Source of the DNA: Oculatellaceae cyanobacterium bins.114
GTDB taxonomy: Bacteria; Cyanobacteriota; Cyanobacteriia; Elainellales; Elainellaceae
NCBI GenBank assembly: GCA_033764315.1
Contig: JANRJA010000165.1
Location: 1-29,239 of the forward strand
Reading direction: 5' to 3'
Length of the DNA stretch: 29,239 nucleotides
Below, piece by piece: positions 1,537-29,239 of this stretch. The notes below the pieces were generated by a model. The model searched no databases. It was given only the letters and a program-made list of their open reading frames with translations, and was not told the DNA's origin. The translations under genes were made by a program, and so were the position numbers. Positions within the stretch are counted from its first letter, which is position 1, and each line of letters begins with the position of its first letter.

Positions 1537-2817
1537 TTAGGCACTAATCGTAGATTGATACATCAGCTTGCGAGCTGAGACCATTCCTTCAACCAACAAA
1601 TCCATCTCCTCACGGGTATGCAGTGAATTGACCGTAATCCGCATACGAGGCTTGGCGATAAACCAGATTGGAGACAACCATAGCCCGTAGTCGTTCATCA
1701 ACACGCGAGCAAACACTTTAGGATTTAGATCGGGTGGCAAAATAACAGGGATAACGTTTGTTTCACCGATCGCCTCAAAGTCATTTTCAAGGAGTTGCGA
1801 TCGCAGGTAACGGGTGTTGTCCTGGAGTTGTTTGACTAACTCTGGATGCTGACGCACTTGACGAATGCTCTCTAAAGCCGCCGCTGTGGTTGGAGGTGGC
1901 AGTGAGATCGTACCAATCGAGGTTGGAGAGACATTTAACAAGGGCTTTAACTCAGCAACGTGGCTACTAATAGCCGCTCCAGCCGAGGCCGCAAATTTAG
2001 AGAAGGTGGTCATAATCAGTGGCACGACACCCCGCTCAATGGCATTTTGAGGCAATAGACCAAAGTGTTCATAGATACCTCTGCCGGTTGCACCCAACGC
2101 GCCGCTAGCATGAGCCTCATCCATCACCAAAACACTTCCTTCGTAGTTTTGCATGATGTCGATCATGGTCGGCAGCGGAGCAATGTCACCATCCATTGAG
2201 AAGACCGCATCTGACACCACCATAATGCGGTCGTCAGGGCGAGAATATCGTTGTAGTTTACGCGCCAAATCTTCCATATCGCAGTGGCGGTAGGCCCGCA
2301 CCCGCACCCGGGGGCTGTGCCCAAATAGCTTTCCAGAGCGAGTTCCCGCATTGGCGATCGCTGAGACGATACAACCATGATTTAACACATCTGTCAAAAT
2401 CAGGGTTTCGCGAGTGTGTTCAAATCCGGGCACCGGAATAGCTAGATGACAAAAAGCATCCATCAGAGCTTGCATCGCCATCCACGCATTTAAAAATAGC
2501 TGCGTATGTTGCAGGTGCTTAAACTCTGAAATTTCATTTTCGAGCTGGCGATGAATGTCAATCCGACCACTCAACACTGAGCACGAACTATTTGAAGTAC
2601 CATATTGCAGAATGGAGTCGATTGCCGCTTGTTGAACGGCTGGGTTTTGGGTCAACCCTAAAACGTCATTGGTACAAAATGTTAGTACCGTACGACGATT
2701 ACCGGTTTCAGATTCTTCAATCTCAACCAGGTTTCCTTGCTTGCGATGGCAGATATATTCATCGGGATCAAGCCCACTTTCGTACCAACGCTGAACGTAT
2801 TCTTTAACAACTTGCAC
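1537..2817 (-). CDS. PLP-dependent alpha-oxoamine synthase family protein (BioF/KBL/SPT-like), divergent
   Basis: NDVLGL, D.LNHGCI, YRHCDMEDL, DAVFSMDGD, DEAHASG and TFSK (PLP lysine) motifs. GTG start with GAGGGGAG upstream. Confidence 0.88.
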   Translation of the reverse strand: MQVVKEYVQRWYESGLDPDEYICHRKQGNLVEIEESETGNRRTVLTFCTNDVLGLTQNPAVQQAAIDSILQYGTSNSSCSVLSGRIDIHRQLENEISEFKHLQHTQLFLNAWMAMQALMDAFCHLAIPVPGFEHTRETLILTDVLNHGCIVSAIANAGTRSGKLFGHSPRVRVRAYRHCDMEDLARKLQRYSRPDDRIMVVSDAVFSMDGDIAPLPTMIDIMQNYEGSVLVMDEAHASGALGATGRGIYEHFGLLPQNAIERGVVPLIMTTFSKFAASAGAAISSHVAELKPLLNVSPTSIGTISLPPPTTAAALESIRQVRQHPELVKQLQDNTRYLRSQLLENDFEAIGETNVIPVILPPDLNPKVFARVLMNDYGLWLSPIWFIAKPRMRITVNSLHTREEMDLLVEGMVSARKLMYQSTISA

Positions 2818-4822: not shown

Positions 4823-6037
4823 ATGTTGCCTGTTGGCGAAGCCTCTCAAAAGCAAACTTTCCCATTCAAGCTTCCAAAGCAGACTCCAAAATTTTTGGTG
4901 CTGTTAGCGGCAGGTTGTTTAACCACAATGACAGGTGGAGTTGTCTCGCCAGTGTTGCCAGAGATGGTGCAGCAACTTCATCTTGACCCTAAGTGGGCGG
5001 GCATGTTGGTGAGCATGCATGCTCTGACGATCGCCCTGTTTACCCCAGTTTTTGGGATTTTGGCAGATCGGGTCGGCAAACTTAAGGTGATGATCCCATC
5101 CCTCCTCTTGTACTCCCTCTTTGGCACTTTAGGAGCATTTATTCCCCATTTGGTGCCGTTGTTAGTGGTGCGAGGGCTGTTAGGGGCAGCTAGTGGTGGC
5201 GTCGCCGCTGCGAGTATTGGGTTACTTGGCACTATGTATGATGGCGAAGTGCGATCGCGCGTCTTGGGCTATGCCACCAGTGCCATGACTACAGCCGCCA
5301 TTATGGTGCCTATTATTGGTGGATGGATTGGCAGTGAGCACTGGCAACACGCCTTTTATCTCTATACCTTAGGGGTGCCGTTGGCGATCGTAGCCGCGTT
5401 TGTCTTAAACGATAAACCCTCTCAAAAAGCATCGGCGATCGCACCGAGTGCCCAGAGAGAACAACTCTTTCGATGCCTACGTCAGCCTCAAACCTTACAG
5501 CTTTACGCAATTTTGGCATTGGCCGCTACCGTTGTCTATGCTGTCGTTATCTACACCCCCCTCTATCTCAAAGCCACCATCGGCGCAGGACCAGAACTCA
5601 ACGGTATTGTGTTGGGCGTGAGAGCGATCGGGGCAGCCATTATTTCAGCCGTGGGGGCAAGCTGGCTGGCAAAACGGATTGGGGTCAAACAGACTATTGC
5701 ACTCGGGTTTTTCCTGATGTCGCTGACGCTGATCACCATTCCGTTTCTACACCAAATTGAGCTTATTTTGCCGACAGCCGTGCTTTTTGGCATTGGTTTT
5801 GGCATTATTACCCCCAATACCTACAACGCCTTAGCCAATCGTGCTCCCGCTGAGGTACGAGCCAGTGTCCTGGCAATTGGGACGGGGGCAAATTCCTTAG
5901 GTCAATTTATTTCTCCCTTGATCTTAGGGTCGGTGTGGAAATATATGGGGTTGCCCACCGTATTTTTTGTGACGGCTGGAATTGCCATCTCGATGAGCAT
6001 TGCCAGTTTGACTCAACGAGAGTCGGCTTTAGATTGA
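4823..6037 (+). CDS. MFS transporter (DHA1-like exporter)
   Basis: About 12 hydrophobic segments; motif A-like GILADRVGK; RGLLG in helix 4. Confidence 0.92.
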   Translation: MLPVGEASQKQTFPFKLPKQTPKFLVLLAAGCLTTMTGGVVSPVLPEMVQQLHLDPKWAGMLVSMHALTIALFTPVFGILADRVGKLKVMIPSLLLYSLFGTLGAFIPHLVPLLVVRGLLGAASGGVAAASIGLLGTMYDGEVRSRVLGYATSAMTTAAIMVPIIGGWIGSEHWQHAFYLYTLGVPLAIVAAFVLNDKPSQKASAIAPSAQREQLFRCLRQPQTLQLYAILALAATVVYAVVIYTPLYLKATIGAGPELNGIVLGVRAIGAAIISAVGASWLAKRIGVKQTIALGFFLMSLTLITIPFLHQIELILPTAVLFGIGFGIITPNTYNALANRAPAEVRASVLAIGTGANSLGQFISPLILGSVWKYMGLPTVFFVTAGIAISMSIASLTQRESALD

Positions 6038-26988: not shown

Positions 26989-27060
26989 ATGTCCCGGCAG
27001 GATTTGAACCTGCAACCCTCTGTTTGTAAGACAGATGCTCCACCCTTGAGCTACAGGACT
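26989..27060 (-). tRNA. trnV: tRNA-Val(TAC), 1:72 mismatch, possibly degenerate
   Basis: Anticodon arm TCTGT-CTTACAA-ACAGA; T arm GCAGG-TTCAAAT-CCTGC; acceptor AGTCCTG/CGGGACA; no CCA. Confidence 0.8.
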
Positions 27061-27065
27061 ACGAG

Positions 27066-27137
27066 AGCGGATGATGGGACTCGAACCCATGCGCTGAGTG
27101 TGGCGCACTCAGATGCTTGCCGCTACATCACACCCGC
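27066..27137 (-). tRNA. trnG: tRNA-Gly(GCC) with C33
   Basis: TGAGT-GCGCCAC-ACTCA; acceptor GCGGGTG/CATCCGC; U73; no CCA. Confidence 0.8.
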
Positions 27138-27143
27138 ATTTTT

Positions 27144-27218
27144 TGGAGCGAAAGACGAGATTCGAACTCGTGTCTCCTGGTTGGAAGCCAGGGATGCTTG
27201 CCGCTGCACCACATTCGC
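27144..27218 (-). tRNA. trnG: tRNA-Gly(TCC)
   Basis: CCTGG-CTTCCAA-CCAGG; U73-CCA. Confidence 0.9.
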
Positions 27219-27222
27219 ATTC

Positions 27223-27298
27223 TGGGGCTGGTGACAGGATTTGAACCTGCAACCTTTCGCTTACAAGGCGATTGCTCTTCCGACTGAGCTACACCAGC
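27223..27298 (-). tRNA. trnT: tRNA-Thr(TGT)
   Basis: TCGC-CTTGTAA-GCGA; acceptor GCTGGTG/CACCAGC; C73-CCA. Confidence 0.92.
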
Positions 27299-27301
27299 AT
27301 A

Positions 27302-27374
27302 AGCAGATGGCGAGGCTTGAACTCGCGTCCAGGACATACCAAATCCTGATGCTGACCGACTACACCACATCTGC
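27302..27374 (-). tRNA. trnT: tRNA-Thr(GGT)
   Basis: AGGAT-TTGGTAT-GTCCT; acceptor GCAGATG/CATCTGC; U73; no CCA. Confidence 0.82.
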
Positions 27375-27377
27375 ATT

Positions 27378-27452
27378 TGGAGCAGGTGACAGGAGTTGAA
27401 CCTGCATGAAGGCTGTACGAAAACCTCATGTTGCCCGTTACATCACACCTGC
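27378..27452 (-). tRNA. trnT: tRNA-Thr(CGT)
   Basis: AGGTT-TTCGTAC-AGCCT; acceptor GCAGGTG/CACCTGC; U73-CCA. Confidence 0.85.
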
Positions 27453-27458
27453 ATTGGT

Positions 27459-27556
27459 TGGACGCGGGGGTGAGAGTTGCACTCACCGTTGCGAAGCACT
27501 CCCGAAGGGAACCGCAGCTTATGAGACTGCTGAGCCGCTCTTGCTCTATCCCCGCT
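27459..27556 (-). tRNA. atypical tRNA with CAT anticodon (Met/fMet/Ile2 unresolved), 27-nt variable region
   Basis: AGCGGGG-ATA-GAGC-AAGAGCG-GCTC-A-GCAGT-CTCATAA-GCTGC-[27 nt]-GTGAG-TGCAACT-CTCAC-CCCCGCG-T-CCA. Confidence 0.75.
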
Positions 27557-27557
27557 A

Positions 27558-27631
27558 TACCCCCGGCGAGAGTCGAACTCGCAACAATCCGGGTTTAAGC
27601 CGGGTACGTCTGCCAATTGCGTCACAGGGGC
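27558..27631 (-). tRNA. trnL: tRNA-Leu(TAA), short variable loop
   Basis: CCGG-CTTAAAC-CCGG; variable TTGTT; G1.U72, A73; no CCA. Confidence 0.85.
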
Positions 27632-27634
27632 ATT

Positions 27635-27710
27635 TGGTGGGTTGTATAGGGTTTGAACCTATGCACTTCCGCTTAAGAGGCGGCTGCTCTACCAACTGAG
27701 CTAACAACCC
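27635..27710 (-). tRNA. trnK: tRNA-Lys(CTT)
   Basis: CCGC-CTCTTAA-GCGG; acceptor GGGTTGT/ACAACCC; A73-CCA. Confidence 0.93.
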
Positions 27711-27741
27711 GTTTTTCTGCTAGTCAACCGAAGGTTGAACT

Positions 27742-27817
27742 TGGTGGGTCGCCAGAGATTTGAACTCTGATCTGTCTGCTTAAAAGGCAGCCACTCTAAC
27801 CGTTGAGCTAACGACCC
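27742..27817 (-). tRNA. trnK: tRNA-Lys(TTT)
   Basis: CTGC-CTTTTAA-GCAG; acceptor GGGTCGT/GCGACCC; A73-CCA. Confidence 0.9.
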
Positions 27818-27820
27818 GAA

Positions 27821-27895
27821 TGGTCTGAGTGATAGGGATTGAACCTACGACCTCCGGTTCCCCGAACCGACGTGCTCCCACTGCACCACACTCAG
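27821..27895 (-). tRNA. trnP: tRNA-Pro(GGG) with C33
   Basis: TCGGT-TCGGGGA-ACCGG; C1-G72; A73-CCA. Confidence 0.82.
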
Positions 27896-27900
27896 ATATG

Positions 27901-27978
27901 TGGTACACCGAGCAGGAGTTGAACCTGCTAATAACACGCTTATCGGGCGTGCGCGTCCACCACTTCCGCCTTCGGTGC
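27901..27978 (-). tRNA. trnI: tRNA with GAT (Ile) anticodon, C33, Leu-like body
   Basis: CACGC-CCGATAA-GCGTG; D arm GCG-GAAGTGGTGGA-CGC; G1.U72; A73-CCA. Confidence 0.75.
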
Positions 27979-27979
27979 T

Positions 27980-28055
27980 TGGTACTCCCGGTGGGAATCG
28001 AACCCACAAAATCTAGATCCTCGGTCTAGAGCGTCTTCCCTTCCGCCACAGGAGC
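27980..28055 (-). tRNA. trnL: tRNA-Leu(GAG) with C33, short variable loop
   Basis: CTAGA-CCGAGGA-TCTAG; variable ATTTT; G1.U72; A73-CCA. Confidence 0.8.
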
Positions 28056-28060
28056 ATCAG

Positions 28061-28134
28061 TACCCTTGGTGGGAGTCGAACCCACAAAATCTGGTCTCTC
28101 AAGCCAGCACGTCTGCCAGTTGGGTCACAAGGGC
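28061..28134 (-). tRNA. trnL: tRNA-Leu(GAG) with U33, short variable loop
   Basis: CTGGC-TTGAGAG-ACCAG (C31.A39 mismatch); variable ATTTT; A73; no CCA. Confidence 0.78.
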
Positions 28135-28137
28135 AAA

Positions 28138-28213
28138 TGGTCGGGATGGTAGGATTTGAACCCACGACTCCTTGGTCCCAAACCAAGGCTTCTGACCACT
28201 GAATTACATCCCG
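28138..28213 (-). tRNA. trnP: tRNA-Pro(TGG)
   Basis: CTTGG-TTTGGGA-CCAAG; acceptor CGGGATG/CATCCCG; A73-CCA. Confidence 0.93.
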
Positions 28214-28218
28214 ATACT

Positions 28219-28298
<80 letters not shown>

Positions 28299-28300
28299 AT

Positions 28301-28377
28301 TGGTACTCCTGGCAGGAGTCGAACCCGCACATGACTGGTTTTGAGACAGCTGCCTCTTCCGATTGGGCTACAGGAGT
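28301..28377 (-). tRNA. trnL: tRNA-Leu(CAA), short variable loop
   Basis: GCTGT-CTCAAAA-CCAGT; variable CATGT; acceptor ACTCCTG/CAGGAGT; A73-CCA. Confidence 0.85.
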
Positions 28378-28383
28378 GAGACA

Positions 28384-28428
28384 TGGGAGGAATACAGGGG
28401 ACTGCCCCAGGCGACTGTTTACCTCCCA
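28384..28428 (-). ncRNA. non-tRNA structured element embedded in the array
   Basis: TGGGAGG...CCTCCCA 7-bp stem enclosing ACAG/CTGT and GGGG-CAGT-CCCC pairings; no T-loop or anticodon arm. Confidence 0.4.
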
Positions 28429-28429
28429 A

Positions 28430-28501
28430 CTGCCCCGCCAGGGTTTAAACCTGGAACTTCGCTTTCAAAGAGCGAGATGTTGCCAGTTACACCACAAGGC
28501 A
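28430..28501 (-). tRNA. trnQ: tRNA-Gln(TTG)
   Basis: TCGCT-CTTTGAA-AGCGA; U1-A72; G73; T loop TTTAAAC; no CCA. Confidence 0.85.
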
Positions 28502-28507
28502 TTGAAT

Positions 28508-28584
28508 TGGATGCCGAGGCTGGGGTCGAACCAGCATCTCCGTGATTCAGAGTCACAGCGACTTTCCATGTCGTCCACTCGGCA
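28508..28584 (-). tRNA. trnQ: tRNA-Gln(CTG)
   Basis: TGTGA-CTCTGAA-TCACG; acceptor TGCCGAG/CTCGGCA; U73-CCA. Confidence 0.85.
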
Positions 28585-28589
28585 ATGAA

Positions 28590-28664
28590 TGGCTGCCCCA
28601 GCAGGACTTGAACCTGCAACCTCGCGGTTAACAGCCGCTCGCTCTGCCATTGAGCTATAGGGCA
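28590..28664 (-). tRNA. trnN: tRNA-Asn(GTT)
   Basis: GCGG-CTGTTAA-CCGC; U1-A72; G73-CCA. Confidence 0.93.
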
Positions 28665-28669
28665 ATGAG

Positions 28670-28742
28670 TGGGAAGTGACGGGATCGAACCGCCATCTCG
28701 CCGTCTTCAGCGGCACGTGAGCACCAGCTTCACCAACTTCCC
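28670..28742 (-). tRNA. trnF: tRNA-Phe(GAA)
   Basis: TGCCG-CTGAAGA-CGGCG; acceptor GGGAAGT/ACTTCCC; A73; no CCA. Confidence 0.85.
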
Positions 28743-28747
28743 ACAAG

Positions 28748-28835
28748 CGGAGGCTAAGAGAATCGAACTCTTGACGGTATATTTCACCCGCAGGCGTTTT
28801 CAAGACGCTTTCCTCGTCCGTGCCGGACAACCTCC
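28748..28835 (-). tRNA. trnS: tRNA-Ser(TGA)
   Basis: GCGT-CTTGAAA-ACGC; long variable arm; acceptor GGAGGTT/AGCCTCC; G73; no CCA. Confidence 0.85.
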
Positions 28836-28840
28836 CTGTT

Positions 28841-28917
28841 TGGCGAGGACGGAGGGACTCAAACCCCCACTCTTCAGGTTCGTAATCTGAGATGTTGTTC
28901 AGTTACACCACGTCCTC
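28841..28917 (-). tRNA. trnR: tRNA-Arg(ACG)
   Basis: TCAGA-TTACGAA-CCTGA; acceptor GAGGACG/CGTCCTC; A20; G73-CCA. Confidence 0.85.
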
Positions 28918-28922
28918 AAAGG

Positions 28923-29003
28923 CGGAGAGTAGTGGAATCGAACCACAATTGTTCATCCATCTGTTTAGCAAACAGCGCCAACGTCCTAATTGGTTTACTC
29001 TCC
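28923..29003 (-). tRNA. trnS: tRNA-Ser(GCT)
   Basis: CTGT-TTGCTAA-ACAG; acceptor GGAGAGT/ACTCTCC; G73 followed by CCT; weakly paired 12-nt variable arm. Confidence 0.78.
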
Positions 29004-29008
29004 ATGAT

Positions 29009-29093
29009 TGGTAGGTCGGGCAGGAGTCGCACCTGCAACGCAAGAAGCGGCTGTTTTACAGACAGTTGCCCACGCTGATAGGCGAGCCGACCT
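29009..29093 (-). tRNA. trnY: tRNA-Tyr(GTA), non-canonical D/T loops
   Basis: CTGT-CTGTAAA-ACAG; 13-nt variable arm; T loop TGCGACT; acceptor AGGTCGG/CCGACCT; A73-CCA. Confidence 0.82.
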
Positions 29094-29103
29094 ATGTCGA
29101 ATT

Positions 29104-29180
29104 TGGCAGTGCCGACGGGAGTTGAACCCGCAAACGCAGCATTGAAAGTGCTGTGGCTTTACCGATTTGCCTACGGCACC
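29104..29180 (-). tRNA. trnE: tRNA-Glu(TTC)
   Basis: CAGCA-CTTTCAA-TGCTG; acceptor GGTGCCG/CGGCACT; G73-CCA. Confidence 0.88.
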
Positions 29181-29239
29181 AAACTTTGAGATTTCTACAG
29201 CGTGCAAGTTTGAGAAGCTGTTTTTTCAGCCTCCAGGGT

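Follow-up and report, generated by a model that had tools for sequence, protein, structure and literature searches.

A CAU tRNA-like gene and its 22-nt insertion

The subject of this analysis is a transfer RNA (tRNA)-like gene with the anticodon CAU that lies in a long tRNA gene array of Oculatellaceae cyanobacterium bins.114 and carries a 22-nucleotide (nt) insertion in its variable loop. The stretch of DNA analysed, hereafter the window, is contig C69 (GenBank JANRJA010000165.1; 29,239 nt), one of the 251 contigs of a draft genome of 6.6 Mb with a completeness of 90.7%. The array occupies 26989-29180 on the minus strand and was recognized from ARAGORN calls and from synteny with relatives and with named cyanobacterial plasmids. 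It comprises 24 tRNA genes called by ARAGORN, 20 of them confirmed by Rfam, which lie on one strand within 2.2 kb at spacings of a few bases, and two further genes that were not called. One of the latter falls in a 104-nt gap between the calls (27453-27556) and is the CAU tRNA-like gene itself, initiator-like and 98 nt long including an encoded CCA (27459-27556, minus strand).

The acceptor stem of this gene has an A1xG72 mismatch and six G-C or C-G pairs, with U73 and the encoded CCA, and a 3-nt connector, AUA, leads from it to the D stem GAGC/GCUC. The anticodon stem GCAGU/GCUGC closes the loop CUCAUAA, in which the anticodon lies at 27521-27523 (minus strand) by both cloverleaf reading and ARAGORN. 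Its pairs 29:41, 30:40 and 31:39 are A-U, G-C and U-G, leaving a single one of the three initiator G-C pairs. The T arm, GUGAG-UGCAACU-CUCAC (27470-27486, minus strand), has an unusual T loop with G at position 55 and is identical in the eight closest aligned sequences. Between anticodon arm and T arm lies a variable region of 27 nt, GGUUCCCUUCGGGAGUGCUUCGCAACG, with two mini-hairpins (UCCC-UUC-GGGA and UGC-UUC-GCA), both present in the best fold under an enforced cloverleaf. A preliminary description of this DNA had reported a CAU tRNA with a 27-nt variable region of two mini-hairpins, which cloverleaf reading, ARAGORN and folding bear out, and it was also correct on A1xG72, U73, the encoded CCA and the lack of three G-C pairs in the anticodon stem.

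At default settings ARAGORN makes no call for 27459-27556, and neither does the Rfam tRNA model even at E<=10; with a lowered threshold, ARAGORN returns a 98-base tRNA-Met(cat) at exactly these ends. The fold energy of the whole molecule is unexceptional by itself (z -1.39). The gene is placed beyond chance because its positional orthologue is called as tRNA-Met(cat) by ARAGORN in related arrays, and because the closest uninterrupted orthologue scores 31.9 bits in Rfam against a cut-off of 29. Two other candidates were rejected: a non-tRNA Rfam family for the region, for which there were sub-threshold noise matches alone, and a group I or anticodon-loop intron, for which the intron mode of ARAGORN returned nothing.

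The insertion, GUUCCCUUCGGGAGUGCUUCGC, occupies 27491-27512 (minus strand; RNA positions 45-66) and is delimited by public contigs with and without the 22 nt and by orthologue alignments. Its first hairpin, (U)UCCC-UUC-GGGA(G) at 27499-27511 (minus strand), is found in the enforced-cloverleaf fold and is further supported by a compensatory pair change in a copy from another genome, G007, and by covariation of the matching hairpin in the repeat family described below. The second, UGC-UUC-GCA at 27490-27498 (minus strand), is also in the fold and aligns to hairpin 2 of the family model (CGC-NNN-GCG); its last base, the A at 27490, is part of the pre-existing variable loop.

Two sets of orthologues, overlapping in species, were compared with the gene: 12 that were aligned with the window and 23 distinct ones drawn from a collection of genome contigs. 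None of either set has the long arm (0/12 and 0/23), all variable loops being 4-6 nt. Nine of the 57 genomes of the taxonomic family, this one counted, have the CAU tRNA; the insert is absent from the others of these nine, and the sole genome of the same genus has no CAU tRNA. The preliminary description had named two findings that would jointly count against its reading, homologues lacking the insert and an unprocessed, uncharged RNA, and the first of them is what all 12 aligned and 23 distinct orthologues show. Together with near-identical contigs that miss exactly 22 nt, they speak against an arm purpose-built for this tRNA.

These contigs came from an alignment of public contigs to window positions 27300-27720 (421 nt). 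Empty alleles were obtained from a biofilm metagenome (X2) and from an organism-labelled run (X11); each covers the full 421 nt with two other letters (99.5% identical) and misses exactly 22 nt at 27491, so that the empty site reads GCG|AACGG. A filled allele was found in a soil metagenome (X1), as a 143-nt contig that aligns ungapped to 27388-27530 with one other letter at 27423. Contigs of an RNA run (X15) cover parts of the array, of this organism or a relative, outside 27495-27524. Apart from the insert the tRNA is intact, with one substitution relative to its closest orthologues. The filled allele in X1 and the empty alleles in arrays that are 99.5% identical together show that the insert is a real and very recent indel.

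A family of two-hairpin inserts in array tRNA genes

The gaps that ARAGORN leaves in other arrays were likewise found to be tRNA genes carrying additional sequence. Gaps of 60-400 nt in 43 array loci were aligned to 607 called tRNAs, and removal of repeated species and of three non-cyanobacterial or poorly aligned loci left 34 loci with 631 called tRNAs. Twenty-seven insert-bearing genes were identified in these 34 loci, each with one insert of 15-30 nt, which corresponds to ~4% of the genes (27/658), a few of which may be alignment artefacts. The T arm or loop is the site in 21 of the 27, and the variable region, the anticodon arm and the acceptor/D junction are each the site in two. The two variable-region cases are the window gene and a tRNA-Thr of genome G017, whose insert likewise has two hairpins. 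Genes that carry inserts elsewhere are otherwise intact, with for example 74/74 and 75/77 identities to uninterrupted orthologues.

Similar inserts are 19-26 nt long, have two hairpins and occur in both orientations; the opposite-orientation copies point to DNA-level insertion. The most frequent type is (U)UCUCC-NNN-GGAGA-CGC-NNN-GCG-AAC, and there are variants with a first hairpin of ACCC-UUCG-GGA. The window insert has the same build in its 22 nt, with UUCCC-UUC-GGGAG, UGC-UUC-GCA and then AC. T-loop inserts of 48 and 51 nt were also observed (L108:4491-4540 and L090:3763-3833), apparently one mini-element nested in or beside another.

Two covariance models of the family were built. The first, R1, was derived from a MAFFT seed alignment of 14 copies, with the window and G007 copies excluded, in which three of eight pairs are changed on both sides. 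The second, R2, was rebuilt from 82 copies in other loci (64 distinct), again without the window. In these 82 copies 97.2% of cells are paired and seven of eight pairs are changed on both sides, a result reached by 0/500 shuffles, in an alignment that was fitted to the model and hence favours the structure. In Moorena bouillonii (L045:4082-4271), a unit that holds the family member TACCCTACGGGAACGCCAAAGGCGAAC is present in four tandem copies, 54 nt apart.

At a per-genome E<=0.01, R1 has matches in 47 of the 57 genomes of the taxonomic family, with 0-39 per genome. Ten of the 30 best-match loci are in tRNA arrays and most of the others are non-tRNA DNA, two of them within tandem heptamer repeats (L158 and L162). 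A near-identical 26-nt copy of the window subtype was found in G007, where it is intergenic and near a terminator-like hairpin; its flanks, left GCG and right AACG, are those of the window, and it departs from the window copy by a single compensatory pair change in its first hairpin (TCCC/GGGA versus TGCC/GGCA). The region of the G007 copy gave only noise in Rfam, and the region of the bins.114 genome that corresponds to the G007 intergenic site contained nothing similar. One further exact subtype match, in a GC-rich metagenome contig (L155), is about what chance would give for 21 specified bases in a collection of that size and was not used as evidence; it lies just upstream of a putative glyS-like open reading frame (ORF). 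A different palindromic repeat, GGGGCGGTTCGCGAACCGCCCC, occurs in the bins.114 genome at C141:18260-18284 and C202:455-479, and one of these copies adjoins a candidate ORF for a REP-associated (RAYT-like) transposase, judged by eye from the translation.

Origin of the insertion and its probable effect on the tRNA

The best explanation, and in our estimate a fairly probable one, is that the branched arm is an SDR-like (small dispersed repeat-like) mini-element inserted into a redundant array tRNA rather than a designed feature. The CAU tRNA is the initiator-like one of a horizontally spread cyanobacterial L-array of the trn-operon type, and in this lineage its variable loop has very recently gained 22 nt. 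The insert would most likely be one copy of the ~19-26 nt two-hairpin repeat family, whose elements, if mobile, would land at the DNA level and in either orientation, in the loops of array tRNAs as well as in non-tRNA DNA. The event would be selfish or neutral rather than an adaptation, and probably harmful or neutral to the tRNA. Insertion is preferred to a purpose-built arm because the orthologues have no arm, because empty alleles exist and because the insert resembles others inside and outside tRNA genes. The tRNA that was hit is regarded as redundant because the genome has three housekeeping CAU tRNAs and the array a second CAU tRNA, and such arrays are normally repressed.

Several observations weigh against this explanation. 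No target-site duplication was seen at 27491, where the flanks can be parsed in several ways, with no settled reading. BLAST and fuzzy search found no second copy of the insert in the bins.114 genome (90.7% complete), which holds one good copy of the family (C141:18851-18876). The exact subtype, with hairpin 2 of UGC/GCA and an end of GCAAC, was found in just two of 401 genomes of the class, this one and G007. With the subtype so rare and without a second copy, the insert is therefore not behaving as a repeat in its own genome. The model scores are modest as well. With R1 the insert is second in the window at 13.6 bits (E 0.038); with R2, which was run over both strands of the 29 kb, it comes third at 15.3 bits (E 0.009). 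Pooled over 457 kb, its E-value is 0.59. The higher-scoring places, 1204-1230 in a hisA/hisF-like coding stretch and 4832-4856, look like chance. Third rank among ~58,000 positions is strong for a site that was named in advance and weak as a blind match. Membership of the window insert in the two-hairpin family is thus likely, at a moderate level of statistical support.

The rival that survives best is a local origin, in which slippage during replication, or a template switch, copied part of the T arm's 5' half and the insert has nothing to do with mini-elements. A further point against insertion of a mini-element belongs here, for the 3' half of the insert with its flank, CGGGAGTGCTTCGCAAC, resembles the T-arm 5' half, CGGTGAGTGCAAC. 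The missing donor copy in the genome, the missing target-site duplication and the only moderate family score would all fit such an origin. This resemblance, however, requires two indels and was noticed post hoc. A local event also leaves unexplained the near-identical 26-nt copy at the unrelated intergenic site of G007, with its compensatory pair change, and the sharing of the two-hairpin build and the 3' end with inserts of other array tRNA genes. Local origin is judged unlikely.

To understand the consequence of the insert for the tRNA, folds with and without it were compared. With the insert, the minimum free energy (MFE) fold, at -36.8 kcal/mol, has the T stem's 3' strand paired to GGGAGUGC of the insert, and the cloverleaf with two hairpins, at -35.3 kcal/mol, lies 1.5 kcal/mol above this misfold. 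The predicted pair probability of the T stem falls from 0.93 in the empty allele to 0.14 in the filled one. Since a portion of the insert looks like the T stem's 5' strand, these predictions suggest that folding, and with it function, is probably impaired. Two points again tell the other way. The thermodynamic prediction leaves out tertiary contacts and modifications. The variable loop is the place in a tRNA known to tolerate an extra arm, that of class II tRNAs, and the tRNA may therefore tolerate the insert.

The same site is the starting point of a second rival, that the arm is functional and makes the gene a special reader of AUG when the array is induced, as an alternative initiator, a mischarged tRNA or a decoy. 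Such a role would agree with an insert placed where class II tRNAs carry their arm, a tRNA otherwise intact but for one substitution, a two-hairpin cloverleaf just 1.5 kcal/mol above the MFE and a filled allele in a second data set (X1). It is opposed by the arm's absence from all 12 aligned and 23 distinct orthologues and from near-identical arrays, by the predicted competition of the insert with the T stem, and by similar inserts in T loops and anticodon arms, in both orientations, where function should be destroyed. We regard a dedicated function as distinctly improbable. The looser proposition, that the filled allele yields a working tRNA, initiator-like and with a two-hairpin arm, which the cell processes, charges and uses once the array is on, is given a slim chance.

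In a third rival the insert would be a mini-intron that is removed from the precursor to leave a normal mature tRNA. The intact state of insert-bearing genes elsewhere (74/74 and 75/77 identities) is what such removal would lead one to expect, while inserts in both orientations and outside tRNA genes are not. The introns of bacterial tRNA genes belong to group I and sit in the anticodon loop, and bacteria are not known to have machinery that splices inserts of 20-26 nt from T or variable loops, which makes a mini-intron very improbable indeed. An assembly or sequencing artefact might be suspected in a 251-contig draft whose array is split at a repeat, and it can practically be dismissed in view of the independently assembled X1 contig, which spans 27388-27530 ungapped with one other letter.

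The locus offers a clean and very recent event, with arrays 99.5% identical with and without the 22 nt, no target-site duplication seen and a HIP1-like octamer at the site. Its novelty lies in the landing site in a variable loop, in a subtype that diverges and in a filled allele matched by empty ones. If the preferred explanation, insertion of a mini-element, is right, spare tRNA arrays are being eroded, or possibly remodelled, by such elements, at ~4% of the array tRNA genes sampled. As tRNA finders miss the invaded genes, the gene counts of arrays are underestimates. Should the filled tRNA be functional, its shape would be unprecedented, and new tRNA architecture, besides pseudogenes, would arise from tiny mobile hairpin elements. 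A bold reading would have elements of 22-26 nt move by a mechanism that recognizes tRNA-loop-like or HIP1-like sites, of which the empty/filled pair would be the first precisely dated event. The locus can be viewed as a natural experiment on the movement of tiny elements and on how much damage a tRNA tolerates.

The surrounding array and comparison with known systems

The order Leu-UAA, CAU, Thr-CGU, Thr-GGU, Thr-UGU, Gly, Gly, Val in the window is common to the arrays of relatives and is also found on plasmids, namely Kovacikia minuta pA, Nostoc PCC 7120 pCC7120delta and those of Tolypothrix PCC 7601 and 7712 and Nostoc HK-01. The second uncalled gene of the array is an 85-nt tRNA-Tyr(GUA)-like gene (29009-29093, minus strand), returned by ARAGORN at the lowered threshold only, whose best match is a called tRNA-Tyr of another array (72/84 identical). 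Its T loop is UGCGACU, with G at position 55, and several other arrays also lack a call at this slot. Spacer hairpins are also conserved, at 27711-27741 and 28378-28429 of the window (minus strand): Lys(UUU) and Lys(CUU) are separated by ttcaaccttcggttga, and Gln(UUG) and Leu(CAA) by gggagg...cctccc, both of which were found in other arrays as well.

The array appears to continue on contig C117. Seven tRNA genes (Asp, Glu, Arg, Cys, Met-CAU, Trp and Glu) stand at the start of that contig, and C117:1-2340 (locus L156) looks like the upstream part of the array; its Met-CAU gene is the second CAU tRNA of the array. The first ~230 nt of C117 are a diverged copy of window 29000-29239. These contig-end segments are similar and non-identical, the join of C117 and C69 is unassembled, and the diverged repeat at the two ends probably broke the assembly. 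C117 also carries an HNH endonuclease ORF (1771-2340, minus strand; Pfam E 4e-16) and TGTAGTA-type repeats at ~1190-1290, where the operator motif from PMC8421152 was matched once against 0.07 expected. CCA is encoded in 19 of 31 array tRNAs versus 8 of 37 others. Outside the array, the housekeeping CAU tRNAs of the genome number three and include a typical initiator (contig C239).

By its size and density (L-arrays have at least 20 densely placed tRNA genes on one strand), its synteny, its HNH gene and its operator-type repeat, the array is a cyanobacterial L-array of the trn-operon type. According to PMC8421152 (2021), the array of pCC7120delta is the published trn operon, in which translational stress is required for the expression and charging of most tRNAs; three of the 26 Anabaena trn-operon genes are pseudogenes, and insertions, duplications and deletions are called frequent among arrays. 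A paper on TrcR (PMC10272220) is cited beside it for the L-array system. The window array shares with L-arrays the dense one-strand tRNA genes, the Leu(UAA)-CAU-Thr order, the HNH gene, the TGTAGTA-type promoter repeats and the frequent encoded CCA. It differs in the small two-hairpin inserts: we found no description of such inserts in tRNA T or variable loops in the literature, including the excerpted text of PMC8421152, whose supplement (Figure S8, Dataset S1H) may show them.

The CAU family looks like a derived initiator tRNA as far as sequence goes. It resembles initiator tRNA-fMet in the CAU anticodon, the 1:72 mismatch, G2:C71, C3:G70 and A11:U24, and the 5' segment of the window gene, GCGGG..AUAGAGCA..GCUC, resembles the genome's own initiator on C239. 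Among the 23 distinct orthologues, position 1:72 is non-Watson-Crick in 20, with 17 mismatches and three U:G wobbles, and Watson-Crick in three; 11:24 is A:U in all 23, as in the window gene. The differences from initiators are equally consistent. The three G-C pairs of the anticodon stem (29:41, 30:40, 31:39) are present in none of the 23, and all share a 3-nt acceptor/D connector, a lack of GG in the D loop and, as T loop, UGCAACU, with G at position 55. The discriminator base is A in 14 and U in nine of them; the window copy has U73, and it alone has the 27-nt variable region. Of the initiator-like reading in the preliminary description, then, the initiator traits stand, being conserved in the 23 orthologues, and the long branched arm falls away as no feature of the family.

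The PCC 7120 and Kovacikia versions retain the T loop UUCAAAU and the D-loop GG, and the non-standard elbow of the CAU family may be a co-varying change at 18:55. In the clade of the window the T loop is UGCAACU and the D loop AAGAGCG, and the orthologues in L002-L120 have a D loop of AAGAGYG. The 17-mer of the T arm was found exactly in 114 stretches of the genome-contig collection. As a separate observation, the same exact 17-mer is the T arm of tRNAs of DPANN and Methanosarcinales archaea (L044, L049, L068, L070, L078, L084 and others), some of them intron-bearing; the D loops of these archaeal tRNAs likewise lack GG. The 17-mer hairpin GTGAGTGCAACTCTCAC, or a close variant, also lies within a ~100-nt insert of an uncalled tRNA-like gene in many arrays, in the context ...cagctttttcaacttgcacgaggt|hairpin|agggagggtatcggttcga; loci with this GTGAGTGCAACTCTCAC insert are L042, L050, L057 and ~25 other Nostocales, and also L002, L005 and L037, where the gap concerned follows Ala(UGC).

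Like class II tRNAs (Ser, Leu, Tyr and Sec), the window gene has additional paired sequence that follows the anticodon arm and precedes the T arm. In class II this arm consists of one helix, which orthologues conserve, whereas the window gene has two short hairpins in 27 nt and the anticodon CAU; with no long arm in any orthologue examined, it does not belong to this class.

The closest counterparts of the insert itself are SDR1-8, small dispersed repeats known from Nostoc punctiforme and its relatives and reportedly the subject of a 2008 paper by Elhai et al. in Genome Res 18:1484. By comparison of descriptions, the insert family resembles SDRs in a length of 21-27 nt, a hairpin with compensatory changes and copies inside tandem heptamer repeats. 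How repeats of ~20-27 nt move is said to have been an open question since that description. A second likeness concerns the insertion site. HIP1 is a marker of cyanobacteria, and its octamer, GCGATCGC, occurs 10,661 times in the bins.114 genome, ~16 times per megabase above random sequence. SDR5 is stated, in the excerpt of PMC4390886 that deals with it, to insert between nucleotides 3 and 4 of GCGATCGC. The octamer whose GCG precedes the window insert is GCGATCGG in several orthologues, and the empty-site contigs have GCGAACGG there; this HIP1-like site offers a suggestive parallel to the insertion of SDR5. HIP1 was also considered as a general target of the family and set aside, since two exact and four one-mismatch reconstitutions among 105 context-distinct matches, obtained with a rough regular expression and multi-register counting, are too noisy a result. 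In distribution the two groups of repeats part: PMC5861425 reports SDR-like repeats only in Nostocaceae, whereas the two-hairpin family extends over 47 of the 57 genomes of another cyanobacterial family.

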